Source of the DNA: Acidimicrobiales bacterium
GTDB lineage: Bacteria > Actinomycetota > Acidimicrobiia > Acidimicrobiales > JBBRAZ01
Direction of reading: 5' to 3'
DNA length: 64,000 nt
NCBI GenBank assembly: GCA_038206295.1
Contig: JBBRAZ010000018.1
Coordinates: forward strand, 8,728-72,727
Below, one piece after another: positions 16,163-42,224 of the stretch. The notes beneath the pieces were generated by a model. It had not been told where the DNA came from, did no database searches, and worked only from the letters and a program-made list of their open reading frames with translations. Made by a program: the position numbers and the translations under genes. Positions within the stretch are counted from its first letter, which is position 1. The number at the start of each line of letters is the position of its first letter.

Positions 16163-16777
16163 TCAGCCGGCGGGTGCCGGGAACGCCTCGTCGAAGATGG
16201 CCTGAAGCTCGGGGGTGGCCGGGCCGCTGAAGCCGCAGCCGTTCACCACGCCACCCGCCGCGGTGACGAGGTACGACTCGCCGACGACGAACTCCACGCC
16301 CTCGATCGAGATCGTCGCCTCGGCCGGAGCGGTGAGCGCCACCTGCTCGGCGTCGCCTCCGACGTACCACTCGTTCACGTCGAGCAGCACCTGGTCGCCG
16401 TCGATCGAGACCGGCGTGGCGCGGAAGGCCGTCTCCATCGCACCGAGTGTCGTGGCATCGATCGCCATGCAGCTGGTCATGGTGATCCCCGGCTCGGGGG
16501 TGGTGAGCTCGAGCGGGGGGCCGGCGGCGACCGGTGCGTCGTCGCCGCTGTCGTCGCCTCCACCGCCGGCGAGCAGCGCGAACGCCACCACGCACGCGGC
16601 GACCGCAGCCAACGCCGCGATGGCGATGGTCCGTCGGGGTGCTCCGGTCTTTGTTTCCTCGGTGTCCATGATCTCCTCCAGGAGGTCCGGGGCGTCGCCG
16701 CCCGTGATGTGGTCCACGGGCACGCCGTCGGGGAGGGGGTCGATGCGCCGGAGGCGATCGTGCAGGTCCTCGGTCAT
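16163..16777 (-). CDS. Single-pass membrane protein, putative anti-sigma factor
   Basis: ATG overlaps the sigma gene stop (ATGA). Cytoplasmic N-terminus, one TM (TIAIAALAAVAACVVAFALLAG), extracytoplasmic ~130-aa domain. The anti-sigma call rests on position only. Confidence 0.5.
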   Translation of the reverse strand: MTEDLHDRLRRIDPLPDGVPVDHITGGDAPDLLEEIMDTEETKTGAPRRTIAIAALAAVAACVVAFALLAGGGGDDSGDDAPVAAGPPLELTTPEPGITMTSCMAIDATTLGAMETAFRATPVSIDGDQVLLDVNEWYVGGDAEQVALTAPAEATISIEGVEFVVGESYLVTAAGGVVNGCGFSGPATPELQAIFDEAFPAPAG

Positions 16778-17367
16778 GTCGTCGCTCCTCGCGCGTGTCC
16801 ACCGCTCCTGTGTTCGGCAGGTGCCGCGTCCTTTCGCTCCTCGAGCGCGCGGCGCAGGCGACCGTGCGCTCGGTGCAGGCGGATGCTCGCCGCGTTGGGG
16901 GTGATATCGAGAACGGTTGCGATCTCGCCGGCGCCGAGGGCCTCCCACGCCGAGAGGCGCAGCAGCTCCTGGTCGGCGTCGCTGAGCGTGCCGAGCGCGT
17001 CCAGCAGCTCGGGGTCGTCGGGCGCATCGACCGATGCGGCATCGCTCGGCCGACCATCCAATCCCGCCACCGGCGCTCGCTGCGCGCCGACGCGCCGCAC
17101 GAGGGCGAGGTGTCGGACGCCCGAGCGGCGGCGGTTGGCGAGGCATCGGCGGGCCACCCCGTAGCACCAGGGCAGCTCGGCGCCGACCGGCACGTCGTCG
17201 AGACGGCGCCACACCACCAGCAGCGCGTCGGCCCAGACGTCGTGGGCATCCTCAGGTGAGGCGCGGCGCCCCAGGTACCGCGCCAACGGGTCGCCGACGA
17301 GCGTCACCAGCGCAACGAACCGCTCGCGCCGCACCGGGTCGTGATCAGGGCTCGGGCTCACCCCCAC
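16774..17367 (-). CDS. ECF-type RNA polymerase sigma-70 factor
   Basis: Region 2 DAHDVWADALLVVWRRLDDV...WCYGVARRCLANRRR. Region 4 LSDADQELLRLSAWEALGAGEIATVLDITPNAASIRLHRAHGRLR. GGAGG 5 nt before the GTG. Confidence 0.85.
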   Translation of the reverse strand: MGVSPSPDHDPVRRERFVALVTLVGDPLARYLGRRASPEDAHDVWADALLVVWRRLDDVPVGAELPWCYGVARRCLANRRRSGVRHLALVRRVGAQRAPVAGLDGRPSDAASVDAPDDPELLDALGTLSDADQELLRLSAWEALGAGEIATVLDITPNAASIRLHRAHGRLRRALEERKDAAPAEHRSGGHARGATT

Positions 17368-17432: not shown

Positions 17433-18701
17433 TCAGGCGATGGCGCGGTCGGGGACCTTGGCGACGATGGCGGCCGCGGCGCGGTACACCGCTTCTGCGG
17501 GACCCAGCTCGTCGTCACGCAGCAGGTTGGCCATGATCGCCAGCACCCACTCCATGATCGAGCGGGAGTGCATCCCGACGCGGGTCATCTCGCGCATCAG
17601 CGTGGGGTTGCCGATGACCTTCACGAACAGGCGGGCGACCTTGAAGTAGAGGCCGTACTCGGCGTCGAGCAGCTCCTCGTAGCGGCGCAGCGCGGTGGCG
17701 TCGCCGGTGCGCAGCGCGTCGCCGAGGACCTCCGCAGCCATGCGCCCGGTCTCGTACGCGTAGTCGATGCCCTCGCCGTTGAACGGGTTGACCGAGCCCG
17801 CCGCGTCGCCGATCGCCAGCCAGGTGGGGCCGATCTTCGGCCCGACCGAGCCGGCCATCGGCAGCTTGCCCCCGACCGGCGGCGCGACCGGCGAGTCGCC
17901 GAGGCCCCAGTGCTCGGGAGCGGTGGCTGCCCACTCGGTCATGAGGTGCGTCGTGTTGACCTTGCGGAAGTCGCGGAAGGTGGAGAGCAGGCCGATGCCG
18001 ACGTTCACCTGTCCGTCGCCGAGCGGGAAGATCCACCCGTAGCCCGGCAGGCTGTTGCCCTGCCGGTCGCGGACGTCGAGCGCGGACTCGATCCACGGGT
18101 CGTCGTGCAGGGGGCTCTCGAAGTAGCCGCGGATCGCCAGGCCGTAGGGGTACGAGCGATCACGAGCGGTGCCGAGCGCCCGGCCGAAGCGCGAGTTCGA
18201 CCCGTCGGCGACGACGACGTAGCGGGCGTGGAGCTCGCGCTCGACGCCGGACTCCTTGTCGAGCACCACCGCGCCGCGCACCAGGCCGTCGCGCAGCAGG
18301 GGGCGGACGGCCTCGGTGCCCTCGTGCAGCGTCGCTCCGGCATCGACCGCGTGCTGCGCGACGAGCTGGTCGAGGTCGCGCCGGCGCACGACGTAGCCGT
18401 AGGGCGGGAACCGCGGGTGCTCCGGCCAGCGCATCTCGATGGTGCGGTCGTGCGCGATGGCCCGCAGTCCGTCGTAGCGGTGGTGCACCTCGAGCTTCGG
18501 CTCGAGCCCCATCTCCTGGAGCTGCGCGACGGCCCGCGGGGTGAGCCCGTCGCCGCACGTCTTGTCGCGCGGGAAGCGCTTGCGCTCGACGACGGCGACG
18601 TCGTGGCCGTCGAGGGCGAGCCAGTACGCAGCTGCGGCTCCGGCGGGGCCTGCGCCGACGACGAGCACGTCGTGGCGATGCGGGGCGGTCACGACCCGCA
18701 C
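17433..18701 (-). CDS. FAD-dependent geranylgeranyl reductase family protein (MenJ-like menaquinone side-chain reductase candidate)
   Basis: HDVLVVGAGPAGAAAAYWLA...VVERKRFPRDKTCGDGLTPRAV. Start moved to GTG 18701, because the track start 19145 overlaps the cytochrome c gene. Confidence 0.8.
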   Translation of the reverse strand: MRVVTAPHRHDVLVVGAGPAGAAAAYWLALDGHDVAVVERKRFPRDKTCGDGLTPRAVAQLQEMGLEPKLEVHHRYDGLRAIAHDRTIEMRWPEHPRFPPYGYVVRRRDLDQLVAQHAVDAGATLHEGTEAVRPLLRDGLVRGAVVLDKESGVERELHARYVVVADGSNSRFGRALGTARDRSYPYGLAIRGYFESPLHDDPWIESALDVRDRQGNSLPGYGWIFPLGDGQVNVGIGLLSTFRDFRKVNTTHLMTEWAATAPEHWGLGDSPVAPPVGGKLPMAGSVGPKIGPTWLAIGDAAGSVNPFNGEGIDYAYETGRMAAEVLGDALRTGDATALRRYEELLDAEYGLYFKVARLFVKVIGNPTLMREMTRVGMHSRSIMEWVLAIMANLLRDDELGPAEAVYRAAAAIVAKVPDRAIA

Positions 18702-18714
18702 GCTACCGGGGAGG

Positions 18715-19500
18715 TCAATGACCCCCGCCGCCGCCTCCGCCTTCGGTGACGATGCCGTCGGTGAGGAACAGCTCGATGAAGGCAGCGTCGATCTCGCCTG
18801 CAGCCTCGAGCTCCTCGAGGATCGGCGTCCAGACCTCGGGATCGAACTCCTCACCGCCGAGGTTCTCACGCTCGTGCCGGACGATGAACAGGAGCTCGTG
18901 GATCTCGACCGTGTCGCCGAACCCAGGCATGCCACCCTTGACGGGCTTGTCGTTCGCGCCGTACGTGCTTCCGACCTCGGCCTTCCAGCCGTCTGAGCCG
19001 AGCTCCACCCACAGGAGGTGGTCGGCGGGGTCGGGGAACGTGTCGACGATCGCGCCGTTGGTGAACGCCGGACCGGCTCCACCGCCGCCGCCTGCGCCGT
19101 GGCACCCGCCGCAGGCGATGCTCGGGTTCGCGTACGCCTCCGCACCAGCGGCCAGCGGGGTCAGGCCGCCGCCCCCCGCCGGCGAGAGCGTGGCGACGTA
19201 GATGATCGCCCAGATGGGCAGGAAGGCCAGCACCGACACAGCCCACACCGGGACCCGGGGGCGGGTGGTGGCCGCCACGATGTGCGGCGCCGGAGGCTTC
19301 GCCGCCGCCTTGGGCTTGGCGGGTGTCGAGAACTCGGCGGTGGGGCCGGCGGGAGCAGCGGCGGCGGCCGTGGTGGCCGGCGCGGTGCTGGGCGCATCGC
19401 CTGCGGTGGGGATCGGGGCAGCTGCCTCGTCGCCGCCGAGGCCGAGTGCGGCGCGTCGGGCTCGGCTGCGCTCGAGCAGGTGCTCGGGGATCTTGCTCAA
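18715..19500 (-). CDS. Membrane-anchored mono-haem cytochrome c
   Basis: One CxxCH (ACGGCHG), a distal Met candidate (GGMPGF), one TM (VWAVSVLAFLPIWAIIYVATL). TTG start 19500 is preceded by GGAGGG. Confidence 0.75.
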   Translation of the reverse strand: MSKIPEHLLERSRARRAALGLGGDEAAAPIPTAGDAPSTAPATTAAAAAPAGPTAEFSTPAKPKAAAKPPAPHIVAATTRPRVPVWAVSVLAFLPIWAIIYVATLSPAGGGGLTPLAAGAEAYANPSIACGGCHGAGGGGGAGPAFTNGAIVDTFPDPADHLLWVELGSDGWKAEVGSTYGANDKPVKGGMPGFGDTVEIHELLFIVRHERENLGGEEFDPEVWTPILEELEAAGEIDAAFIELFLTDGIVTEGGGGGGGH

Positions 19501-19785: not shown

Positions 19786-19816
19786 GGAAGGACGCCACCC
19801 GGTGGTTGCGTTTTTG

Positions 19817-20251
19817 ATGTCGTGGCTGGTGCTGGTCGCTGGTATCGGCATCGTGGTCGTCATTGCCAAGCGTCGGGCCCCCGGCTCGCCCCTGCTGTGG
19901 GGCGATGCGATGGTGGCCGGCACAGCCGCGTTCTTCCTCATGTTCTGGGCCTACGGCATCCTCCCGCACCAGTGGTTGACGCTCGCCGACAACGAGTGGG
20001 CGTGGCGTCCGGACCGGATCCTCTACGGACCGTGGGACATCTTCAAGCCCACCTCCGACGGCGGGGCGGTCCCGGTGATCATCAGCTACCGCACGCTGCG
20101 CGACATCATCGCCACGGTCCTCTACATCGTCCTGCTCGGCGGCCAGATCGCCATGTGGGCGTGGTGGCAGGGCCGGGCCGACAAGAAGGTCGCCGATGTC
20201 GAGGTGTCGGACTACGGCCGGCCTCTGGTCAAGGCGAAGGGCGCCCGCTGA
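19817..20251 (+). CDS. Small integral membrane protein (about 3-4 TM), unknown function, first gene of the bc cluster
   Basis: MSWLVLVAGIGIVVVIAKRR...; 144 aa. Its stop overlaps the start of the next gene (ATGA-type). AGGAAGGA lies upstream. Confidence 0.6.
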   Translation: MSWLVLVAGIGIVVVIAKRRAPGSPLLWGDAMVAGTAAFFLMFWAYGILPHQWLTLADNEWAWRPDRILYGPWDIFKPTSDGGAVPVIISYRTLRDIIATVLYIVLLGGQIAMWAWWQGRADKKVADVEVSDYGRPLVKAKGAR

Positions 20252-20667
20252 TGGCCAAGATCGACGCGAACCCGCCGCTGCCCGAGTTCACCGAGGACTA
20301 CGTCCTCCAGGAGGTGGACGCCACCTGGTTGGCCAAGGCGGTCAAGCCCAAGCAGTTCATCCACATCGACCAGTCCGAGTGCATCATGTGCGAGGGCTGC
20401 GTCGACATCTGCCCGTGGAAGTGCATCCACATGCTGCGCACCGAGATCGTGTCGGAGGCCATCGGCGCCGACCGCCCGGGCAGCGATCCGAGCGACAACG
20501 TGGCCTTCGTCATCGATGACGACGTCTGCACCCGCTGCGCGCTGTACGTGGACCGGTGCCCGACCGGCGTGATCATCCTCGGCAAGGTCAGCGACCCGGA
20601 GGCGTCGGGCGATCCGCACCAGCGGACCAGCTCGCACGGCTACGGCTACGGCATGCGGCTCGTCTGA
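20251..20667 (+). CDS. Ferredoxin-like 2x[Fe-S] protein encoded inside the bc-complex cluster
   Basis: CIMCEGCVDICP (canonical CxxCxxCxxxCP) and CTRCALYVDRCP (third Cys replaced by Tyr). 138 aa. Confidence 0.8.
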   Translation: MAKIDANPPLPEFTEDYVLQEVDATWLAKAVKPKQFIHIDQSECIMCEGCVDICPWKCIHMLRTEIVSEAIGADRPGSDPSDNVAFVIDDDVCTRCALYVDRCPTGVIILGKVSDPEASGDPHQRTSSHGYGYGMRLV

Positions 20668-20708
20668 GCTGCGATCACAGAGACGACTGGGATAGGTAGG
20701 AGAGCGAA

Positions 20709-21500
20709 GTGCCGAGCAACGACTCGAAGGGCACGAAGGTCGGTGACGTCATCGGCCAGAAGATGTCCGATCTGACCGATTCGGTCCAGGGGTCTCAAGC
20801 GTGGAGCTCGATCTTCCGACCAGGGTCGATCTTCCGCAAGGGCTACTCCGACAGCCCCCGCAACCGGTCGTACGTGATCATGAACTCGGTGCTGTACCAC
20901 CTGCACCCGGTGAAGGTGAAGCGCCACGCGGTGAAGGTCAGCTACACGCTGTGCCTCGGCGGCTTGAGCTTCTTCCTCTTCATCCTGCTGACGGTGACGG
21001 GCATCTTCCTGATGTTCTTCTACCGCCCCGACGCCGCCACCGCATGGGACACCATCAGCACGATCCACTCGTCGGTGGCCTTCGGTCTGCTGATCCGCAA
21101 CATGCACCGGTGGGCGGCGCACCTCATGGTGCTCACCGTCTTCCTGCACATGGCTCGAGTCTTCTACCACGGCGCCTACAAGCCGCCCCGCGAGTTCAAC
21201 TGGGTCATCGGCGTCATCCTGCTGACGCTCACCCTGCTGCTGTCGTTCACCGGCTACCTGCTGCCCTGGGACCAGCTGGCCCTGTGGGCGGTGACCGTGG
21301 GAACCAACATGATGGGCTACACCCCGGTGTTCGGCGACCAGGTGCGCTTCGTGCTCCTGGGCGGCGCCGAGATCGGCTCGGAGACCCTGCTGCGCTGGTA
21401 CGTCCTGCACGTCCTGTTCGTCCCGTTCGTGACCGTCATCTTCCTTGCGATCCACTTCTGGCGGGTCCGCAAGGACGGTGGCATCTCGGGCCCGCTGTAA
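20709..21500 (+). CDS. qcrB: Cytochrome b, N-terminal (b6-type, 4-helix) subunit
   Basis: Haem-ligand His pairs in RNMHRWAAHLMVLTVFLHMARVF and LLRWYVLHVLFVPFVTVIFLAIHFWRV. LPWDQLALWA motif. 263 aa, so cytochrome b is split. Confidence 0.9.
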   Translation: MPSNDSKGTKVGDVIGQKMSDLTDSVQGSQAWSSIFRPGSIFRKGYSDSPRNRSYVIMNSVLYHLHPVKVKRHAVKVSYTLCLGGLSFFLFILLTVTGIFLMFFYRPDAATAWDTISTIHSSVAFGLLIRNMHRWAAHLMVLTVFLHMARVFYHGAYKPPREFNWVIGVILLTLTLLLSFTGYLLPWDQLALWAVTVGTNMMGYTPVFGDQVRFVLLGGAEIGSETLLRWYVLHVLFVPFVTVIFLAIHFWRVRKDGGISGPL

Positions 21501-21509
21501 GGAGCACAG

Positions 21510-22304
21510 GTGACTGAGATCCCCGAGCACCTCCGCAAGCGGGCAGCGGAGGCCAAGGCCAAGGCCGAGGCCAAGAAGGCCGATGCCGACGCGCCCGCCG
21601 AGGCCCCAGCGGCCGACGCAGCGGCCGACGACGCCCCCGCCGCCACCGACAGCCGCATCCCCGCCCACCTGCTGGCGCGCTCCAAGTCGGCCAAGTCCCG
21701 CAAGGGAGACGACGCGGCGGCCTCAGCGGACGGCGGTGCAGCGGTGCCTGCAGCAGCGGCCGCCACGGCCGTCGCCGCTGCAGCTCCCCCGACGGTGACG
21801 GGCCCCGGCGGCCACACCCAGCGCCTGCTCACGGTGGTCAAGGCGGGCTCGATCCAGGACGTGAAGGCCAAGCCCCAGGACAAGGTGCACGTCTGGCCGC
21901 ACCTGCTCATCATCGAGTTCGTGGCCGCACTCGCCGCCACGGCGTTCCTGTTCGTGGCGTCGATCTTCGCCAACGCCACGTTCCGCGAGCTGGCCGACGT
22001 CAACGCCACGCCCAACCCGTCCAAGGCGCCGTGGTACTTCCTGGGCCTCCAGGAGCTGCTCACGATGTTCCACCCGATGGTCGCAGGCGTGACCATCCCG
22101 GGCATGGGCATCTTCCTGCTGATCCTCGCCCCCTACATGGATCGCAACACGTCCAACAAGCCCGAGGACCGCAAGTTCGCAATCTCGGTGTTCACCGTCC
22201 AGCTCATGTTCTGGGGTGTGCTGGTGATGATCGGCTCCTTCTTCCGTGGGCCGGGCTTCAACTTCACCCTGCCCTGGATCGACGGCCTCTGGTTCGAGAT
22301 GTGA
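21510..22304 (+). CDS. Cytochrome b C-terminal part (subunit IV-like) with a ~110-aa Ala/Lys/Asp-rich N-terminal extension
   Basis: NPSKAPWYFLGLQELL aligns with the PEWY Qo-site segment. 3 TM helices. AAGGAG lies before the GTG. Confidence 0.85.
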   Translation: MTEIPEHLRKRAAEAKAKAEAKKADADAPAEAPAADAAADDAPAATDSRIPAHLLARSKSAKSRKGDDAAASADGGAAVPAAAAATAVAAAAPPTVTGPGGHTQRLLTVVKAGSIQDVKAKPQDKVHVWPHLLIIEFVAALAATAFLFVASIFANATFRELADVNATPNPSKAPWYFLGLQELLTMFHPMVAGVTIPGMGIFLLILAPYMDRNTSNKPEDRKFAISVFTVQLMFWGVLVMIGSFFRGPGFNFTLPWIDGLWFEM

Positions 22305-22350
22305 TGCCGACCCCACCGATCTGCCCCGCCCGCCATCGAGGAGGACGCTC

Positions 22351-23196
22351 GTGAACATCCTCGTGATCGCCATCCCGGTCCTGGTGGTGCTCGCACTGCT
22401 GGTCCTCGTCGGCGCCTCGCGCCGCAGCGACGCCGGCGCGGCCACCGGCCAGATGAGCCGCCTCACGCGCTCGCGCGACCGCGGGCCGCTCGACGAGGAC
22501 GAGGGGGTCCTGCGCGGGAAGGCCTTCGAGCGCGTCGCGGTGCTCGAGCGCCAGAGCGTCGGCGAGGTCGTGAAGGCCGAGGGAGGCCCGCCGGCCGCGT
22601 GGGTGGCCCCGGATGCCGACGTCATCGGCGTCAACCGCCGCCAGTTCCTCAACCGCAGCATCGTCGGCGGCTTCGTCTTCTCCCTCAGCGGCTTCGGCGC
22701 CGCGGTCATCGCCTTCCTGTGGCCGCCCGCCGGCGGCGGCTTCGGATCCAAGATCCGTGTCGGGAGCGTCGCCGACATCAAGGCCGAGATCCAGGCCGCC
22801 AACGGGTTCCTGTACAAGCCCGAGGGCCGCATGTGGGTCACCGAGTACCCGGCAGGAGCGATCGACAAGGCCAAGGACGTCTACTCGCCCGCTGAGCTCG
22901 CCGGCATGGAGGCCGGGGTCATCGCGCTCTACCAGAAGTGCCCGCACCTCGGCTGCCGCGTCCCGGAGTGCCTGACCTCGCAGTGGTTCGAGTGCCCGTG
23001 CCACGGCTCGCAGTACAACCGGGTCGGCGAGAAGCGCGGTGGCCCGGCGCCCCGTGGCATGGACCGGTTCGCGATGTCGATCGAGGGCGGCGCGCTCATC
23101 GTCGACACCGGCGCCATCATCCAGGGCCCGCCGATCGGCGTGAACACCACCGGCCAGGAGGCCGAGGGCCCGAACTGCATCGGCGGGACCCACTGA
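22351..23196 (+). CDS. qcrA: Rieske [2Fe-2S] subunit
   Basis: CPHLGC ... CPCHGS Rieske boxes. Two N-terminal TM segments. AGGAGG lies before GTG 22351. Confidence 0.88.
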   Translation: MNILVIAIPVLVVLALLVLVGASRRSDAGAATGQMSRLTRSRDRGPLDEDEGVLRGKAFERVAVLERQSVGEVVKAEGGPPAAWVAPDADVIGVNRRQFLNRSIVGGFVFSLSGFGAAVIAFLWPPAGGGFGSKIRVGSVADIKAEIQAANGFLYKPEGRMWVTEYPAGAIDKAKDVYSPAELAGMEAGVIALYQKCPHLGCRVPECLTSQWFECPCHGSQYNRVGEKRGGPAPRGMDRFAMSIEGGALIVDTGAIIQGPPIGVNTTGQEAEGPNCIGGTH

Positions 23197-24347
23197 TGCA
23201 GCTGCTCGCGAGCCAGCTCGTGCTGGCCAACACCCAGAAGACGATCGGCTACGTCATCGCCGTGCTCGTCGCCATCGGGTTCGTCACCTACGCGCTCATC
23301 AACGTGCGCCTGGGACGGCGCGAGGCCGGCAGCGAGATCGAGCTCGCTCCCAACCGCCAGCCCTACCTCGACGACGAGGAGCTCGAGACCAAGAAGCTCG
23401 ACCTCAGCCTCGCCTTCGCGCTGGTGCTGCTGCTCGCGCTCGGCATCGGGCTGCCCGGGTACTGGCTGGCGGAACCCGGTCGCCAGGCCGGTGAGGAGCT
23501 GCACCAGCTCGATCAGTACGTGCGCCGCGGGGAGCGGGTCTACAACGAGGGCGCCCAGTGCGTGAACTGCCACGGCCCCGAGGGCGTCGGCGGCGCGGTG
23601 TCCTACGCCATCACCGACGCCGAGGGGAACTTCGTCGACCAGGTCAACTGGAAGGCACCTGCCCTCGACACCCTCCTCTACCGCTACTCGCGCGCGGAGA
23701 TCACCGAGATCCTCACCTACGGCCGCGCCGGCACCCCCATGCCGGCGTGGGGCATCGAAGGTGGCGGTCCGCTGGATGCCAACGCCATCCAGGACGTCAT
23801 CACCTACCTCGAGACCGTGCAGCGTCCCGTGGGGGAGGTGCGCGACGAGGTCGAGCTCGCGGTCCAGGAGCTGTGCGCACCCGAGGTGGTCGACGCGTCG
23901 GCCTACGAGGCCGCCGTCGGTGACGGAGCAGACCAGCGCGACCTGATCGACCCTGCGTGCACCGCGGCGACCGCGGAGTTCGAGACGCTGGGCGAGACCC
24001 TGTTCAACCTGCCCACGGCCGAGGGCACGTTCGCCTGCGCCCGCTGCCACACCAAGTACTGGGCCGCGGACTCGAGGCTGGACGAGCCGCCCGAGGCCAC
24101 GCAGGACGGTCCCGCCGGCGGCGGCGCCTACGGGCCGAGCATCAACGGCGACGCGACCGCCAAGTACACACCGGCGGAGCACGTCGAGTTCGTCACACGC
24201 GGCGGCGACTTCCCCGGCACCTGGGAGATGCCCGGCTTCGGCTTCAACCCCAACGCCGAGGACGAGGGCAGCCCGATGGACGAGGAGCAGTTCATGCTCA
24301 CCGCCGCGCAGATCGAGGCGATCGTGTCCTACGAGCGGAGCCTGTGA
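23196..24347 (+). CDS. qcrC: Dihaem cytochrome c subunit (QcrC-like)
   Basis: Two CxxCH motifs (CVNCHG, CARCHT) with downstream MP motifs. Two N-terminal TM helices. Start overlaps the Rieske stop. Confidence 0.85.
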   Translation: MQLLASQLVLANTQKTIGYVIAVLVAIGFVTYALINVRLGRREAGSEIELAPNRQPYLDDEELETKKLDLSLAFALVLLLALGIGLPGYWLAEPGRQAGEELHQLDQYVRRGERVYNEGAQCVNCHGPEGVGGAVSYAITDAEGNFVDQVNWKAPALDTLLYRYSRAEITEILTYGRAGTPMPAWGIEGGGPLDANAIQDVITYLETVQRPVGEVRDEVELAVQELCAPEVVDASAYEAAVGDGADQRDLIDPACTAATAEFETLGETLFNLPTAEGTFACARCHTKYWAADSRLDEPPEATQDGPAGGGAYGPSINGDATAKYTPAEHVEFVTRGGDFPGTWEMPGFGFNPNAEDEGSPMDEEQFMLTAAQIEAIVSYERSL

Positions 24348-24349
24348 CC

Positions 24350-25267
24350 ATGGAGCACCTGCACGTCCTGGCCGGCCTGGCCTACGACCCGAACATCCGG
24401 GGCATCCTCATCGTCCTCGTGTCGACGGTGATCCTCTTCGGATCCATCTACCTCATCGTCGCCACCAACACCGGTTCCCGACTCGGCCTCCTCATCGCCG
24501 GAGCGGGGCTGGCCGGGTGGATGGTGATCATGGGTCTCACGTGGATGCTCTACGGCATCGGCCTCCGGGGCCAGGCGCCCGTCTGGCACGTGGTCGAGGT
24601 GAACGTCGCGCAGACGCACCAAGCGGAGACCGAGGCCGTCCGCTCGCTGCCGAACCCCGAGGAGCTGCCGAGCAGCGCCGAGCTGATCGAGTCCAACCCC
24701 GAGATCTGGGATCCCGAGGAGTTCGACGCCACCGACAGCTTGTCGGACCTGGCCGCAGCGCCGGGTGGTTGCGAGCTGTTCCGCGACATGGACCTCGGCG
24801 GCTGGACGCTGGCGTCGGTGTCGGACCTCGGCGAGCCGCAGGCCACCATCGACGCCGCGCTCGTGGCCGAGGGCATCTTCGAGCGCCCCACGGACTACCT
24901 CGTGCTGAGCGGGTTCGACAAGGGCGGCAAGGCGCCGCTCGCCACCTGCCCCGATGACGAGGTGACGCGCATCGACCGCATCACCCGCTACCTCACCTCG
25001 CTGAGCCCCACCCATCCCGTGCACCACTTCGTCCTCCAGGTGCAGCCGGTGATCCTCCAGACGCCCGTGCCGGGTGAGGCGCCGCCGGTGCCGCAGGTCG
25101 ACCCGACCGAGCCCGTGATCTCGGTGGTCATGGTGCGCGATCTCGGCAACCTGCGATTCCCCGCCGCGATGGTCACGCTGGCGAACCTGCTCGTGTTCAT
25201 GGTGCTCGTGTCGATGCTGAACCGGCGCGACCGCGTGGCGCAGCAGCACATCGACGAGGCTGGCTGA
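24350..25267 (+). CDS. Membrane protein of unknown function linking the bc cluster to nuoA
   Basis: 305 aa: 3 N-terminal TM helices, an acidic soluble middle, and a C-terminal TM. Gaps of 2 nt (upstream) and 3 nt (downstream) to the neighbouring genes. Confidence 0.6.
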   Translation: MEHLHVLAGLAYDPNIRGILIVLVSTVILFGSIYLIVATNTGSRLGLLIAGAGLAGWMVIMGLTWMLYGIGLRGQAPVWHVVEVNVAQTHQAETEAVRSLPNPEELPSSAELIESNPEIWDPEEFDATDSLSDLAAAPGGCELFRDMDLGGWTLASVSDLGEPQATIDAALVAEGIFERPTDYLVLSGFDKGGKAPLATCPDDEVTRIDRITRYLTSLSPTHPVHHFVLQVQPVILQTPVPGEAPPVPQVDPTEPVISVVMVRDLGNLRFPAAMVTLANLLVFMVLVSMLNRRDRVAQQHIDEAG

Positions 25268-25270
25268 CCG

Positions 25271-25738
25271 GTGGCGCAGTACCTGCCGATCCTCGCGCTC
25301 GCAATCCTGGCGAGCTTGTTCGCAGCGATCAGCTTCGTGGCATCTCGGCTGCTGGCGCCGCGCAACCCCACCGCAGCGAAGTCGGCTCCCTACGAGTGCG
25401 GCATCGAGTCCGGCCGTGAGCCGCCAGAGCGCTTCCCGGTGACCTTCTACCTCATCGCCATGATCTTCATCGTGTTCGACATCGAGGTGATCTTCTTCTT
25501 CCCGTGGGCGATCGTGCACAAGGAGCTCGGCTTCTTCGGCCTCGCGGCGATCTTGATGTTCGCGGCGCTGGTCTTCGAGTCGTTCGTGTACCTGATCGGC
25601 AACGGCGCGCTCGAGTGGGGACCCGCGAAGCGCCTGCGCTCCAACCCGATGGTCGACCCCGGTCGGACGATGGGCACCACCATCAGGCGGGTGGGCACCG
25701 AGGGGCGTGCGCCGCTCGCCTCCGACGAGGCGGCCTGA
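25271..25738 (+). CDS. nuoA: NADH-quinone oxidoreductase subunit A (operon 1)
   Basis: [25 protein letters not shown]. 155 aa with a C-terminal extension. Confidence 0.9.
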
Positions 25739-32705: not shown

Positions 32706-33913
32706 GCGGCGATCCGCTCCTGTCGGGGGTCGTCGACCTCGAGATCGTCCTCATCGTCGTCGGCAAGGTCGTCTTCACGTTCGCGTTCCTGATGGTCGCG
32801 GTCATGTTCATGGTGTGGTTCGAGCGCAAGGTCGTCGCCGACATGCAGAACCGCATCGGGCCGGACAAGGCCGGTCCGTGGGGCCTGCTGCAGACGCTCG
32901 CCGATGGCATCAAGCTGTTCTTCAAGGAGGACCTGATCCCCGATCGCGCCGAGCGCCGGGTGTTCATCCTCGCCCCGTACCTGGCGTTGGTGCCGGCGTT
33001 CCTGCTCTTCGCCATCGTCCCGCTGGGCGGCGACTTCAACGGCGGCGGCGCCGGCACCGTCAGCATCGCCGGCCACGACACGTTCCTCCAGGTGGCCGAT
33101 CCGCCGATCGGCATCCTGTTCGCGCTGGCGATGAGCTCCATCGCGGTCTACGGCGTGATGCTCGCGGGTTGGTCCTCGGGATCGAAGTACCCGCTGCTCG
33201 GTGCGGTGCGCGCCTCGGCCCAGATGGTCTCCTACGAGGCGGCGCTCGGCTTGTCGGTCGCGGCGGTGGTCCTGCTCGTCGGTAGCCTCTCGACGCACGA
33301 CATCGTCGCCTGGCAGGCAGGAGCGGGTCCCGGCGGCGTCCTGCCCAACTGGGGCATCTTGCGCACCGGCTTCGTGCCGTTCGCGCTGTTCCTCATCGCG
33401 GCGACCGCCGAGCTCAACCGCCCGCCGTTCGACCTGGTCGAGGCCGAGCAGGAGCTCGTCGGCGGCTTCCACACCGAGTACTCGTCGATCCGCTTCGCTC
33501 TGTTCTTCCTCGCCGAGTTCATGAACACCGTCACCATGTCGGCGATCATGGTGACCTTGTTCCTCGGTGGCCCAGCGGGTCCGATGTGGTTCGGCGTCCT
33601 GTCGCCGACGATCTGGTTCTTCGTCAAGCTGCTCTGCTTCCTGTTCGCCTTCGTGTGGTTCCGCGGCACGCTGCCGAGGTTCCGCTACGACCAGCTCATG
33701 GACCTCGGCTGGAAGGTGCTGATCCCGCTGTCGCTGGCCTGGTTCCTGCTCCTCGGTGCGATCGAGCTCGCTCGCGACGAGGGCTGGAACCCGGTGGTGG
33801 TCGTCGGCGGGGGCATCGTGGTGCTGCTCGCGGGCGCTGCGCTGCTCGGCGCGGCGGTCGACAAGGCGCGCGCCGTCGACGAAGGCGCCGAGATCGAGGA
33901 GCCGGTGCGCTGA
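32702..33913 (+). CDS. nuoH: NADH-quinone oxidoreductase subunit H (operon 1)
   Basis: GPDKAGPWGLLQTLADGIKLF, AELNRPPFDLVEAEQELVGGFHTEYS. Confidence 0.93.
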   Translation: MSGDPLLSGVVDLEIVLIVVGKVVFTFAFLMVAVMFMVWFERKVVADMQNRIGPDKAGPWGLLQTLADGIKLFFKEDLIPDRAERRVFILAPYLALVPAFLLFAIVPLGGDFNGGGAGTVSIAGHDTFLQVADPPIGILFALAMSSIAVYGVMLAGWSSGSKYPLLGAVRASAQMVSYEAALGLSVAAVVLLVGSLSTHDIVAWQAGAGPGGVLPNWGILRTGFVPFALFLIAATAELNRPPFDLVEAEQELVGGFHTEYSSIRFALFFLAEFMNTVTMSAIMVTLFLGGPAGPMWFGVLSPTIWFFVKLLCFLFAFVWFRGTLPRFRYDQLMDLGWKVLIPLSLAWFLLLGAIELARDEGWNPVVVVGGGIVVLLAGAALLGAAVDKARAVDEGAEIEEPVR

Positions 33914-34569
33914 TGGGCTACCTCGACGGATTCCGCATCACGTTCAACAAGCTCTTCGAGGAGCGCGTCACCGGTGAGTACGAGATCGGCACCGGCGAGA
34001 AGTCGCCCAAGCCCGAGCGTCTCCACGGCCGCCACGTCCTGAACCGCTACGAGGACGGGATGGAGAAGTGCATCGGCTGCGAGCTGTGCGCTGGCGTGTG
34101 CCCGGCGCGCTGCATCTACGTGCGCGGCGCCGACAACCCGATCGACGATCCGGTCTCGCCGGGTGAGCGGTTCGGCTTCGTCTACGAGATCAACTACCTC
34201 CGCTGCATCCACTGCGACCTGTGCGTGGAGGCGTGCCCGACGGAGGCCATCACCGAGTCGAAGCTCTTCGAGTTCTCGTTCCTCAACCGGGCGGACGCGA
34301 TCTACACCAAGGACGAGCTGCTCGTCGACGACGAGGGCCGACCTCGCCAGATGCCGTGGGAGGACTGGCGGCCGGGCGAGGACGAGCACACCTCCGGATG
34401 GGTGCGCGCTACCGCGCCAGCTGGCGACCACCGCTACGAGGGGCGTGTCGGCTGGTCCGGCGAGCTCGGCTACGGCGTGCGCGCGCCTGAGGCCGCCCAG
34501 ACGGAGAAGGACGCATCATCGGCGCCACCCGCGTCGAGCGCCCCAGCCGATCACGGGGGAGGGCACTGA
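33913..34569 (+). CDS. nuoI: NADH-quinone oxidoreductase subunit I (operon 1)
   Basis: CIGCELCAGVCP and CIHCDLCVEACP. ~60-aa C-terminal extension. Confidence 0.92.
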   Translation: MGYLDGFRITFNKLFEERVTGEYEIGTGEKSPKPERLHGRHVLNRYEDGMEKCIGCELCAGVCPARCIYVRGADNPIDDPVSPGERFGFVYEINYLRCIHCDLCVEACPTEAITESKLFEFSFLNRADAIYTKDELLVDDEGRPRQMPWEDWRPGEDEHTSGWVRATAPAGDHRYEGRVGWSGELGYGVRAPEAAQTEKDASSAPPASSAPADHGGGH

Positions 34570-40724: not shown

Positions 40725-42224
40725 GTGGATCCCGCTGGCCCCCCTCGAGACGGCACAGGCGCGCCCGTGGCGTGGGCCGGCGAGGGGCTGGTGCTGGTGC
40801 TGGCGCCCGATCTCGCCACCGCGGCGCCGGTCCTCGGGGCGCTCAACGGGCTCGAGGGGGCGGCGATCCGACGTCGGGCTGGGTCAGTCCAGCTCGCGGC
40901 GCGGCTCGGGCGCGAGGTCGAGCACAACCTCCTCGAGAACCGCGAGCTCGCCGGCGGCGCCAGCGCGCTGGAGGAGTCCGAGCGGGTGCGGCTCGGCATC
41001 GTGGCGCAGTCCAGTGCGGCGCGCCACGCGCGCACGCTGGCAGCGGACCTGATCGGGTTCGCGACCGACGTGCTCGACGTCGACCTGATCGTCGAGCCGG
41101 TCACCGGGCCCTCCGACGTGCTCATCGCCGCCGCCCAGCTCGTGCCCGCCGCCCGCCTGGTGGTGGTGGAGGTCGGCGACGACGGCCTCGGCGACGTCTT
41201 GCTGGACCGGTTCGGCACCGAGCGCGTCCTGGCGGTGACGCTCGAGGACGCCGCGGCCAGCGCGCGGGCGGTGGCGGCGTTCCTCGGTCGCTCGCTGCCG
41301 CACGACGATGCGGCGGTGAGCGCGGATGACGAGGCGAGCCCTGCGGCGGTTCCGCTGCGGGTCCCCGACCCTGCCGACGAGCACGTCGTGGTCTACCGGC
41401 CCCAGGACCGGCTCGACCTCGGGTACGTCGCTGCGTGGCGCTCGATCCTGGGCTCGGTGCGCACGCATCGCGACCTGGCGTGGCAGATGTTCCGCCGCGA
41501 CTTCTTCGCGCCGTACCGCAGCAGCTACCTCGGCATCAGCTGGCTCGTCATCGCACCCCTGCTGGCGATGGTGCAGTGGATGATCGTTCAGCGCAACGGC
41601 GTGCTCGATCCCGGCGAGATCTCCGTTCCCTACCCGGTCTTCGTGCTCATCGGCACCACGATGTGGACGATGTTCATGGGCGTGTACACCGCGACGAAGA
41701 TCACGCTCACCTCCAGCGGCCACCTGCTGCTCCAGATCAACTTCCCGCGGGAGATCCTCGTCTTCAAGCAGCTCGGGCAGCAGATGGCGACGTTCCTGGT
41801 GAGCTTCGGGGTCACCCTCGCGGTGCTCGGCGTGTACGCCATCGCTCCGGCGTGGCAGTCGATCTTCCTCCCCTTCGCCCTGATCCCCCTCATCTTGATG
41901 GGCACCGCGTGCGGGCTCGTGGTGGCGATGATCGCGGTGGTGGCCGTCGATCTCGATCGGCTCCTCACGACGGTGTGGGCGCTCGTGCTCTGGCTCACGC
42001 CGGTCGTGTACCAGCTGGGGGATACGACCGGCGCCCTCGCGACCGTCGTGCGCTGGAACCCCCTCACCTACCTCGTCCTCGCACCGCGCGACCTCATCCT
42101 CTTCGGTGAGGTGAGCCACCCTCAGCGCTTCGCCGTCGCCAGCGCGCTCGCGCTCCTCCTCTTCATCGGCGCCGGTCGCCTCTTCCACGTGTCGGAGCCG
42201 CAGCTGGTGGAGAGGCTGCTGTGA
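40725..42224 (+). CDS. ABC-2 (Wzm/TagG-type) polysaccharide export permease with an in-frame ~195-aa N-terminal extension of unknown function
   Basis: C-terminal ~300 aa has the typical Wzm lead-in (WRSILGSVRTHRDLAWQMFRRDFFAPYRSSYLGISW) and 6 TM helices. The upstream 40725-41315 has no stop and strong GC3 coding bias. An alternative internal start is GTG 41316. Confidence 0.7.
   Translation: MDPAGPPRDGTGAPVAWAGEGLVLVLAPDLATAAPVLGALNGLEGAAIRRRAGSVQLAARLGREVEHNLLENRELAGGASALEESERVRLGIVAQSSAARHARTLAADLIGFATDVLDVDLIVEPVTGPSDVLIAAAQLVPAARLVVVEVGDDGLGDVLLDRFGTERVLAVTLEDAAASARAVAAFLGRSLPHDDAAVSADDEASPAAVPLRVPDPADEHVVVYRPQDRLDLGYVAAWRSILGSVRTHRDLAWQMFRRDFFAPYRSSYLGISWLVIAPLLAMVQWMIVQRNGVLDPGEISVPYPVFVLIGTTMWTMFMGVYTATKITLTSSGHLLLQINFPREILVFKQLGQQMATFLVSFGVTLAVLGVYAIAPAWQSIFLPFALIPLILMGTACGLVVAMIAVVAVDLDRLLTTVWALVLWLTPVVYQLGDTTGALATVVRWNPLTYLVLAPRDLILFGEVSHPQRFAVASALALLLFIGAGRLFHVSEPQLVERLL

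Follow-up and report, generated by a model that had tools for sequence, protein, structure and literature searches.

Gene organization of the locus

The DNA analyzed here (hereafter, the window) is a 64,000-nucleotide stretch from an Acidimicrobiales bacterium (GenBank assembly GCA_038206295.1, contig JBBRAZ010000018.1, positions 8,728 to 72,727 of the forward strand), and our subject is a run of seven co-oriented genes at positions 19802–25267 of it, which encode a Rieske/cytochrome b complex together with a dicluster ferredoxin and two membrane proteins that we refer to as g1 and g7. The seven genes, followed by the two genes that flank them, are listed below.

19802–20251 (+): g1, a 149-residue membrane protein; GTG start with a GGAAGGA ribosome-binding site; exact product present in the protein collection
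20251–20667 (+): dicluster ferredoxin, 138 residues; Fer4 families
20709–21500 (+): cytochrome b6, 263 residues; Cytochrome_B (PF00033)
21510–22304 (+): subunit IV, 264 residues; Cytochrom_B_C (PF00032)
22351–23196 (+): Rieske protein, 281 residues; PF00355; exact 281-residue product on record
23196–24347 (+): di-haem cytochrome c, 383 residues; Cytochrome_CBB3 and Cytochrom_C families
24350–25267 (+): g7, a 305-residue membrane protein
18715–19500 (−): divergent mono-haem cytochrome c, 261 residues; TTG start with a GGAGGG ribosome-binding site; exact product on record
25271–25738 (+): nuoA, Oxidored_q4 and NuoA families; first gene of the complex I operon

The boundaries of the seven genes were backed by sequences resembling ribosome-binding sites and by exact product look-up. 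TGATG overlaps join g1 to the ferredoxin gene, to which it is translationally coupled in this way, and the Rieske gene to the cytochrome c gene, and the remaining gaps measure 2–46 nucleotides. A preliminary description of this stretch had proposed seven packed genes forming an atypical Rieske/cytochrome b cluster, and this was confirmed by the open reading frames, the ribosome-binding sites, the product look-up and the synteny reported below; its start of g1, an ATG at 19817, was replaced by the GTG at 19802. A promoter scan of the region returned 0 promoter-like sites, and the 4 terminator-like sites found by a terminator scan all lie within coding sequence or at the start of g1 and are not meaningful.

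Conservation of gene order

GTDB species-representative genomes were scanned for relatives of the ferredoxin, which yielded at least 573 loci encoding one, and the best 80 of them were analyzed for synteny. All of these 80 were of the Acidimicrobiales type (Iamiaceae, Microthrixaceae, Acidimicrobiaceae, Aldehydirespiratoraceae and others), and the order of the seven genes was kept in 80/80 as far as the contigs extend (g1 present in 79, b6 in 80, g7 in 58, nuoA in 55 and the divergent upstream cytochrome c in 69), an arrangement that is far beyond chance. Mean conservation with respect to the window was 84% for b6, 79% for the ferredoxin, 68% for subunit IV, 62% for the Rieske protein, 44% for g1, 42% for cytochrome c and 39% for g7; the ferredoxin is thus the second most conserved product within Acidimicrobiales (79% mean column identity), behind b6.

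The start of nuoA lies 3 nucleotides past the stop codon of g7 with no terminator-like site between them, and nuoA stands directly after g7 in all 55 loci whose contigs extend far enough. The complex III cluster and the nuo genes look like a complex III–complex I super-operon reaching to about position 42000, a direct run-on into nuoA that the preliminary description had overlooked.

The more divergent full-length ferredoxins (34–50% identity) come from other Actinomycetota, and two of their contexts, L081 and L083, were inspected. Both show the order small membrane protein, ferredoxin, b6, subunit IV, Rieske protein, cytochrome c and a 245–275-residue membrane protein, with identities to the window of 67–69% for b6, 55–62% for subunit IV, about 50% for the Rieske protein and 41% for the ferredoxin. 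These modules adjoin genes for cytochrome c maturation and oxidase rather than nuo. The final gene of the module is homologous to g7 in both L081 (BLAST, E = 6e-10) and L083 (E = 1.5e-8), and the small protein at the first position is homologous to g1 (hhalign probability 96%, E = 2e-9; controls below 2%). In L081, a 41-residue open reading frame follows the g7 homologue. The preliminary description would have been contradicted had the ferredoxin and the membrane protein genes lacked synteny with the qcr genes in relatives; ferredoxin, g1 and g7 were syntenic with them in every relative examined, even where the ferredoxin is only about 41% identical.

The dicluster ferredoxin

The ferredoxin is acidic (12 Lys/Arg and 22 Asp/Glu), has neither a transmembrane segment nor a signal peptide, and carries only Fer4 domains in Pfam. 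Its two cluster motifs are CIMCEGCVDICP and CTRCALYVDRCP, the second of which reads CTRCALCVDRCP in relatives. The family has two CxxCxxCxxxCP motifs with eight Cys in total, as expected for 2x[4Fe-4S], whereas the window copy has an intact first motif and seven Cys in total: Tyr99 (TAC, 20545–20547) occupies the third Cys position of the second motif, which reads CxxCxxYxxxCP. This position is Cys (TGC or TGT) in 80/80 relatives and also in the closest relative, P0510, which is 93% identical. Tyr99 may reflect an error of sequencing or assembly, or else a mutation private to this genome that would alter cluster II. The Tyr in the second motif of the window copy is a correction to the preliminary description.

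The N- and C-terminal extensions of the ferredoxin are invariant. In an AlphaFold2 (AF2) monomer model computed from a 30-sequence alignment, the predicted local distance difference test score (pLDDT) was 50 and both extensions were below 50; invariant termini that are unfolded in such a model would be expected of segments that become ordered on a partner. The top matches among solved structures were generic polyferredoxin and NuoI/NdhI domains. The family is a small one, with 378 representatives at E < 1e-3 among 1.84 billion proteins, many of them fragments, and every sampled context contains Rieske/cytochrome b genes. The ferredoxin gene lies directly upstream of b6 in the Actinomycetota-type loci, and its place is variable in the loci encoding a GltD-like protein that are described below. 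The lack of a signal or transmembrane segment, together with the very strong conservation, would fit an extra redox subunit. A displaced NuoI was also considered and ruled out, as the nuo operon encodes a canonical NuoI (within 33586–34569).

The membrane proteins g1 and g7

Kyte–Doolittle hydropathy placed the transmembrane segments of g1 at residues 3–21, 36–54 and 99–117, with the N-terminus predicted outside and a basic C-terminal tail inside; a conserved Trp-rich segment is present, and the Trp-rich loop is predicted on the outer side. In g7, transmembrane segments lie at residues 19–37, 45–63 and 272–290, with an acidic loop of 208 residues. Sequence searches of Pfam, NCBIfam and PDB with g1 and g7, at lenient thresholds and including divergent orthologues, gave nothing credible, and the matches to PPR, MFS and Na/H-exchanger families were rejected as low-complexity or transmembrane noise. 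An AF2 single-sequence model of g7 was unusable (pLDDT 49). We consider both proteins to be probable lineage-specific accessory subunits or assembly factors.

Cytochrome b6 and subunit IV

In a HMMER search against PDB, b6 matched spinach and cyanobacterial b6 with E = 7e-47 (residues 77–263 on 30–215). The four haem-ligand His of helices B and D align with those of spinach and Nostoc b6 and are invariant in 72 orthologues, and the sequence LCLGG aligns with YCLGG, which holds Cys35 of haem ci/cn, with CxGG likewise invariant in the orthologues. The C-terminus ends in ...GISGPL as in b6f-type b6, and the adjacent gene encodes a subunit IV with three transmembrane segments, so that cytochrome b is split (PF00033, PF00032 and hydropathy). 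At its N-terminus, b6 carries a conserved, basic extension of 47 residues which is found neither in the b6 proteins of PDB nor in the ExtP model. A W-x-SIFR-x-G motif and His64 of this extension are common to all ferredoxin-associated b6 proteins sampled, both of the ferredoxin-only type and of the type in which the ferredoxin accompanies a GltD-like protein (GltD-ferredoxin type). The haem-ci Cys is kept in all ferredoxin-only modules and in 1/5 of the GltD-type b6 proteins sampled, and lost in the other 4/5. Residues 28–47 of the window b6 (20790–20850) contain an internal duplication, SIFRPG–SIFRKG; in the GltD-associated relatives, SIFRxG occurs only once.

Subunit IV has three predicted transmembrane segments and an N-terminal extension of about 130 residues with two IPxHLLxRS motifs. 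Its Qo motif is APWY (SKAPWYFLGLQELL) and not the canonical PEWY/PDWY, and by this motif the enzyme can be assigned to the APWY clade of Kao and Hunte, which lists a split Ilumatobacter cytochrome b and is wholly uncharacterised (PMC4122944). A conserved Glu-Phe precedes the first transmembrane segment, where menaquinol-type complexes place the haem-ci ligand; a Glu beside the Phe40 equivalent of subunit IV has been reported for such complexes (PMC12954380).

The pattern IP[EA]HL[LR]x[RK][SA] has exactly three matches in the six-frame translation of the window, at 21519 (+), 21657 (+) and 19491 (−), which correspond to the N-terminus of subunit IV, a site 46 residues later in the same protein and the N-terminus of the divergent cytochrome c (IPEHLLxRS), respectively. 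Each copy lies in a predicted cytoplasmic extension that is followed by an Ala/Pro-rich linker and a transmembrane helix. The motif is conserved in subunit IV of Acidimicrobiales and is not found in L081 or L083; one possibility is that it serves both proteins as a signal for docking or targeting.

Rieske protein, cytochromes c and neighbouring genes

The Rieske protein is built from an N-terminal transmembrane segment, a cytoplasmic loop, a Tat-like NRRQFL motif and a second transmembrane segment, followed by the [2Fe-2S] motifs CPHLGC at residue 197 and CPCHGSQY at residue 215. The two motifs include the disulfide cysteines, and the latter holds both the Ser and the Tyr that raise the potential of Rieske clusters. 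Its top PDB match was 9rk4 (Kuste4569 of Kuenenia, E = 1.7e-12), with PetC marginally behind.

The cytochrome c of the operon has an N-terminal transmembrane hairpin and two haem motifs, CVNCH at residue 122 and CARCH at residue 281. It had been taken for an actinobacterial-style dihaem QcrC, but it scored 18.1 bits against the NF050122 (QcrC) cut-off of 200, and its counterpart in L081 (10810–11553, 247 residues) is mono-haem, with di-haem proteins in the window and L083. The idea of a mosaic of split cytochrome b and QcrC fails with it, since the cytochrome c is not a QcrC orthologue. Taken as a whole, the interpretation in the preliminary description stands as regards an atypical cluster with syntenic ferredoxin and membrane proteins, and falls as regards the QcrC label and a precedent that it missed (see below).

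The divergent cytochrome c has a CGGCH motif and is membrane-anchored by a transmembrane segment at residues 117–135. It adjoins a gene of the geranylgeranyl-reductase family at 17433–18716 (−), whose top NCBIfam match is the menaquinone reductase MenJ, at 349 bits and thus below the equivalog cut-off of 700. A gene for an ECF-type sigma factor lies just upstream of this MenJ-like gene at 16774–17367 (−), followed by a possible anti-sigma open reading frame.

Relation to GltD-type clusters

The protein P0249 consists of 615 residues and is a GltD-like protein with flavin adenine dinucleotide (FAD) and NAD(P) domains, whose last 115 residues share 38% identity with the window ferredoxin (E = 5e-20); a Rieske gene follows its gene. 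A search with the ferredoxin domain of P0249 gave 154 relatives in NC10, Planctomycetes, Terriglobia, Sulfuricaulis and Actinomycetota. Six of these contexts were inspected, and in 6/6 the ferredoxin was fused to a GltD-like gene or stood directly behind one, adjoining genes for cytochrome b, subunit IV (APWY where readable), Rieske protein and cytochrome c. Distant members of the ferredoxin family (30–39% identity, E = 5e-9 to 5e-20) were GltD-fused or GltD-adjacent within Rieske/cytochrome b clusters in 7/7 sampled cases, for instance those of L106 and L107 (E = 3e-16 and 2e-15 against the window ferredoxin) and of L108 (30% identity, E = 5e-9). The window operon thus encodes an FeS protein without an export signal that is homologous to the FeS module of other Rieske/cytochrome b clusters. 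This protein has no GltD-like NAD(P)/FAD domain, and neither the window cluster nor the modules L001–L083 contain a Pyr_redox or Fer4_20 gene. In the GltD-type clusters, for their part, BLAST detected no homologue of g7, and no small gene is annotated at the position of g1. A metagenome scan with full-length P0249 was uninformative, as all the loci that it returned were generic GltD-like ones lacking Rieske/cytochrome b genes.

Several GltD-ferredoxin clusters have further contents. L106 (9769–11841) encodes a 690-residue protein of repeated units of about 115 residues with a faint cupredoxin-like annotation, L110 (10467–12227) a molybdopterin enzyme, and L111 (1–1851) NrfD-like and Fer4_11 genes. 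L106 and L107 are apparently frameshifted versions of one cluster.

A precedent for a cytoplasmic FeS subunit exists in the anammox bacteria, and it had been missed in the preliminary description. In two published studies, anammox and other subfamily G Rieske/cytochrome b complexes are described as carrying a cytoplasmic FeS/FAD/NAD(P) subunit (PMC5600118, PMC12954380), and the gene arrangement of the GltD-type clusters is the one known from Kuenenia and subfamily G. The subunit of Kuenenia, with its NAD(P), FAD and FeS cofactors, co-migrates with the complex in complexome data and has been proposed as the electron acceptor of the b-haem chain (PMC5600118, PMC12954380). AlphaFold3 (AF3) models of the Kuenenia complex place the FeS chain beside haems bN/cN, with an N-terminal His of each cytochrome b ligating a predicted extra haem that faces the FeS subunit (PMC12954380).

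A proposed third electron port of complex III

With high confidence, the seven genes can be regarded as the complex III operon of these bacteria, and the ferredoxin, g1 and g7 as functionally tied to it. From gene content, cofactor motifs, synteny, conservation and homology we infer how the ferredoxin might bind, which contacts it would make, and between what partners and in which direction electrons would pass. The complex would be a b6-type, three-haem (bL, bH and ci) menaquinol:cytochrome c oxidoreductase of the APWY lineage, with its operon continuous with nuo. We propose that the ferredoxin is a cytoplasmic-side subunit through which electrons pass between haems bH/ci and a partner in the cytoplasm, and assign to this reading a probability of roughly 0.6. 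Its 2x[4Fe-4S] module would dock on the b6 dimer from the negative, cytoplasmic side. Either the conserved N-terminal extension of b6 or the basic tails of g1 and subunit IV, or the two in combination, would hold it there, and the docked clusters would come within electron-transfer distance of haems bH/ci. Binding is suggested because the genomic association is exclusive, the b6 extension co-occurs with the ferredoxin, the invariant termini are unfolded in the monomer model, the acidic ferredoxin is complementary in charge to the basic N-terminus of b6 and the basic tail of g1, and covalent or adjacent GltD versions exist. A third electron port would thereby link the low-potential chain of b haems to a partner in the cytoplasm.

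Actinobacterial chemotaxonomy points to menaquinone, and this, together with the neighbouring MenJ-like gene, makes menaquinone the probable substrate. Since both the haem-ci Cys and the Glu of subunit IV are kept, normal turnover would still run through the Q cycle. The preferred direction of electron flow would be outward: given menaquinol and a high-potential Rieske cluster (Ser and Tyr), the second electron would remain sufficiently reducing for the FeS clusters, which favours an outward, bifurcating branch, and menaquinol oxidation could push that electron into them at very low potential. The same argument, that a high-potential Rieske protein with menaquinol leaves a low-potential second electron, has been made for Kuenenia (PMC12954380). 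The anatomy equally permits electrons to flow inward, in which case the complex would work as a ferredoxin:menaquinone reductase at Qi. The stronger form of this proposal, a quinol-driven electron-bifurcating complex III (or a reverse, ferredoxin:menaquinone-reducing one) in which the ferredoxin exchanges electrons directly with bH/ci and the conserved His64 might ligate an additional inter-monomer haem, as the AF3 models suggest for Kuenenia, is tentative, and we regard it as possible though doubtful.

Several points weigh against a ferredoxin port. Tyr99, if real, would mean that cluster II is altered or lost in this genome, and the AF2 monomer model of the ferredoxin (pLDDT 50) was too poor for a fold search. 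The argument from a high-potential Rieske cluster depends on two residues only, and the idea of an extra haem derives from AF3 models of another organism. Membership of the operon can equally reflect co-regulation or a role in assembly. The cluster has no FAD/NAD(P) module, and the proposed port is without a named cytoplasmic partner or substrate. Moreover, the hosts are apparently aerobic heterotrophs whose complex I genes adjoin the cluster, and a plain Q-cycle enzyme would suffice for them.

Alternative roles of the ferredoxin and of the cluster

One alternative is that the ferredoxin is an ordinary soluble carrier which is merely co-transcribed and not bound to the complex, for example serving ferredoxin-dependent enzymes whose expression tracks respiration, with g1 and g7 being unrelated membrane proteins. 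Its standard dicluster core without a transmembrane segment and its generic polyferredoxin/NuoI/NdhI structure matches agree with such a role, and the AF2 monomer gives no structural support for a contact. Nevertheless, soluble carriers are rarely retained immediately upstream of b6 across lineages down to 41% identity, and here we have a tiny family found only in Rieske/cytochrome b clusters, whose extensions are invariant and which co-occurs with the b6 extension. In relatives, moreover, this module is found fused to an oxidoreductase of the kind that is a subunit of the complex in Kuenenia (PMC5600118). We therefore consider a free carrier unlikely. The retention of the CxGG Cys in all ferredoxin-only modules, set beside its loss in 4/5 GltD-type b6 proteins whose clusters show no g7 homologue or gene at the g1 position, would suit a different function, in which g1, the ferredoxin and/or g7 act in biogenesis by supplying reducing power or a scaffold for cytoplasmic-side attachment of haem ci or for insertion of the Rieske protein. 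The conserved Trp-rich segment of g1 may be counted on the same side, and we know of no haem-ci ligation system for bacterial b6-type complexes outside cyanobacteria. However, the ferredoxin module also occurs beside b6 proteins lacking the haem-ci Cys, so its role cannot be haem-ci-specific; 79% conservation with invariant termini is high for a maturation factor; and the Trp-rich loop of g1 is predicted on the outer side, whereas haem ci is on the inner side. A biogenesis function is in our judgement quite improbable.

The names given to b6 orthologues in NCBI raise a further alternative, namely that the cluster is an ExtOPQ-type module for selenite/tellurite reduction. The b6 protein does reach 307 bits against the NF040969 (ExtP) cut-off of 290, and NCBI calls the Acidimicrobiales and Ilumatobacter orthologues ExtP; on the other hand, the match begins only at residue 57 of b6, the ExtQ model gives 42 bits against a cut-off of 150, and the other ext genes (multihaem ExtKLMNS, porin ExtI and rhodanese ExtH; PMC5877670) are absent from the cluster. 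The context, moreover, is complex I here, and cytochrome c maturation and cytochrome oxidase genes in L081 and L083. We give this explanation almost no credence.

Annotation and significance

The 90%-identity cluster that contains the window b6 (the cluster of P0517) comprises 671 sequences, among them Ilumatobacter sp. WP_395156279.1, and thus the cultured genus Ilumatobacter has a b6 at least 90% identical to that of the window. Members of the cluster bear the NCBI name "selenite/tellurite reduction operon b-type cytochrome ExtP", derived from the Geobacter-based NF040969, and for the orthologues considered here this naming is misleading and mismatched with the gene context.

Acidimicrobiia and their relatives (Ilumatobacter, Iamia, Microthrix and marine and soil lineages known from metagenome-assembled genomes) are abundant, with at least 573 related loci among the GTDB species representatives. 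If the ferredoxin is a true subunit, the only recognisable complex III of these hosts has a third electron port on the cytoplasmic side, and models of their respiratory chain would change. The occurrence of an FeS subunit on a small cytochrome b would then extend from anammox specialists to common aerobes, and the two-cluster complex would offer a minimal system for testing electron transfer between haem ci/cn and ferredoxin and bifurcation to low-potential acceptors. If the bifurcating reading is true as well, complex III would be a site where low-potential reductant is made or consumed in abundant aerobic Acidimicrobiia, and the complex would be a hard-wired natural model for the debated route from ferredoxin to haem cn in the cyclic electron flow of b6f.

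Comparison with known systems

In the open-access literature, we found no description of an Acidimicrobiia complex III with a ferredoxin or of a ferredoxin-only module. The closest curated b6 family is that of Geobacter ExtOPQ (Cbc-type, from the extHIJKLMNOPQS cluster), in which, as in the window, a short b6 is paired with a small protein resembling subunit IV; a ferredoxin is missing from the ext cluster, however, and ExtP lacks the N-terminal 56 residues of the window b6. The ext cluster was considered as a precedent for the ferredoxin and dropped, since ExtM is a 12-haem cytochrome c (PMC5877670). The PDWF-FeS cytochromes b, which are fused to 4Fe-4S/MvhD or ferredoxin-flavin domains (Kao and Hunte 2014, PMC4122944), share with the window an FeS module attached to a cytochrome b with a Qo motif. 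They are covalent fusions of the GPWY/PDWF clade without a Rieske gene in the cluster, whereas the window has a separate ferredoxin and a Rieske protein.

Cytochrome b6f of cyanobacteria and chloroplasts and the b6c complexes of Firmicutes (Bacillus QcrABC and Heliobacterium) have cytochrome b split at the same point as in the window, and the aligned four His and CxGG, the ...GISGPL end and a PetC-like Rieske protein with CPCHGSQY are common to all of them. The window differs from both in having APWY instead of PEWY/PDWY, in a b6 that is 47 residues longer at the N-terminus, and in encoding the ferredoxin, g1 and g7 within the operon; in b6f, the binding of ferredoxin or ferredoxin-NADP reductase (FNR) is only transient and still debated. 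The window also lacks cytochrome f and PetG/L/M/N, and its cytochrome c is separate and not fused to subunit IV.

QcrCAB, the bc1 complex of Mycobacterium and Corynebacterium that belongs to the III2IV2 supercomplex, is from the same phylum and shares a membrane-anchored di-haem cytochrome c and, presumably, the use of menaquinol; its Rieske protein also has the additional N-terminal transmembrane segment and internal Tat-like motif seen in the window. In spite of these likenesses, the window proteins fall far below the cut-offs of the QcrCAB models (118 bits vs 500 for NF050120, QcrB; 17.8 vs 275 for NF050121, QcrA; QcrC as given above), cytochrome b is split and short, and the gene order is different.

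The complexes of Kuenenia (Kuste4569–4574 and Kustd1480–1485) also have a split b6 and subunit IV, a Rieske protein in which Ser and Tyr lie close to the cluster, and an operon-encoded cytoplasmic FeS module. Homology of the window ferredoxin to Kuste4570/Kustd1483 is suggested via the non-anammox GltD-ferredoxin proteins, the Kuenenia sequences compared being two Rieske domains only. In the Kuenenia type, the FeS subunit has an FAD/NAD(P) domain and four clusters, subunit IV has five transmembrane helices, and a hexa- or octa-haem cytochrome c is joined by an HAO-like partner; the window type lacks the FAD/NAD(P) domain and the HAO-like partner and has two clusters, three helices in subunit IV and a mono- or di-haem cytochrome c. 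The window type also has g1 and g7 in addition and retains the haem-ci Cys and the Glu of subunit IV, and its hosts are Actinomycetota with complex I or oxidase genes alongside the module, unlike those of the Kuenenia type. The window complex would thus be a minimal, ferredoxin-only relative of the GltD-type Rieske/cytochrome b complexes, the type represented in anammox bacteria.

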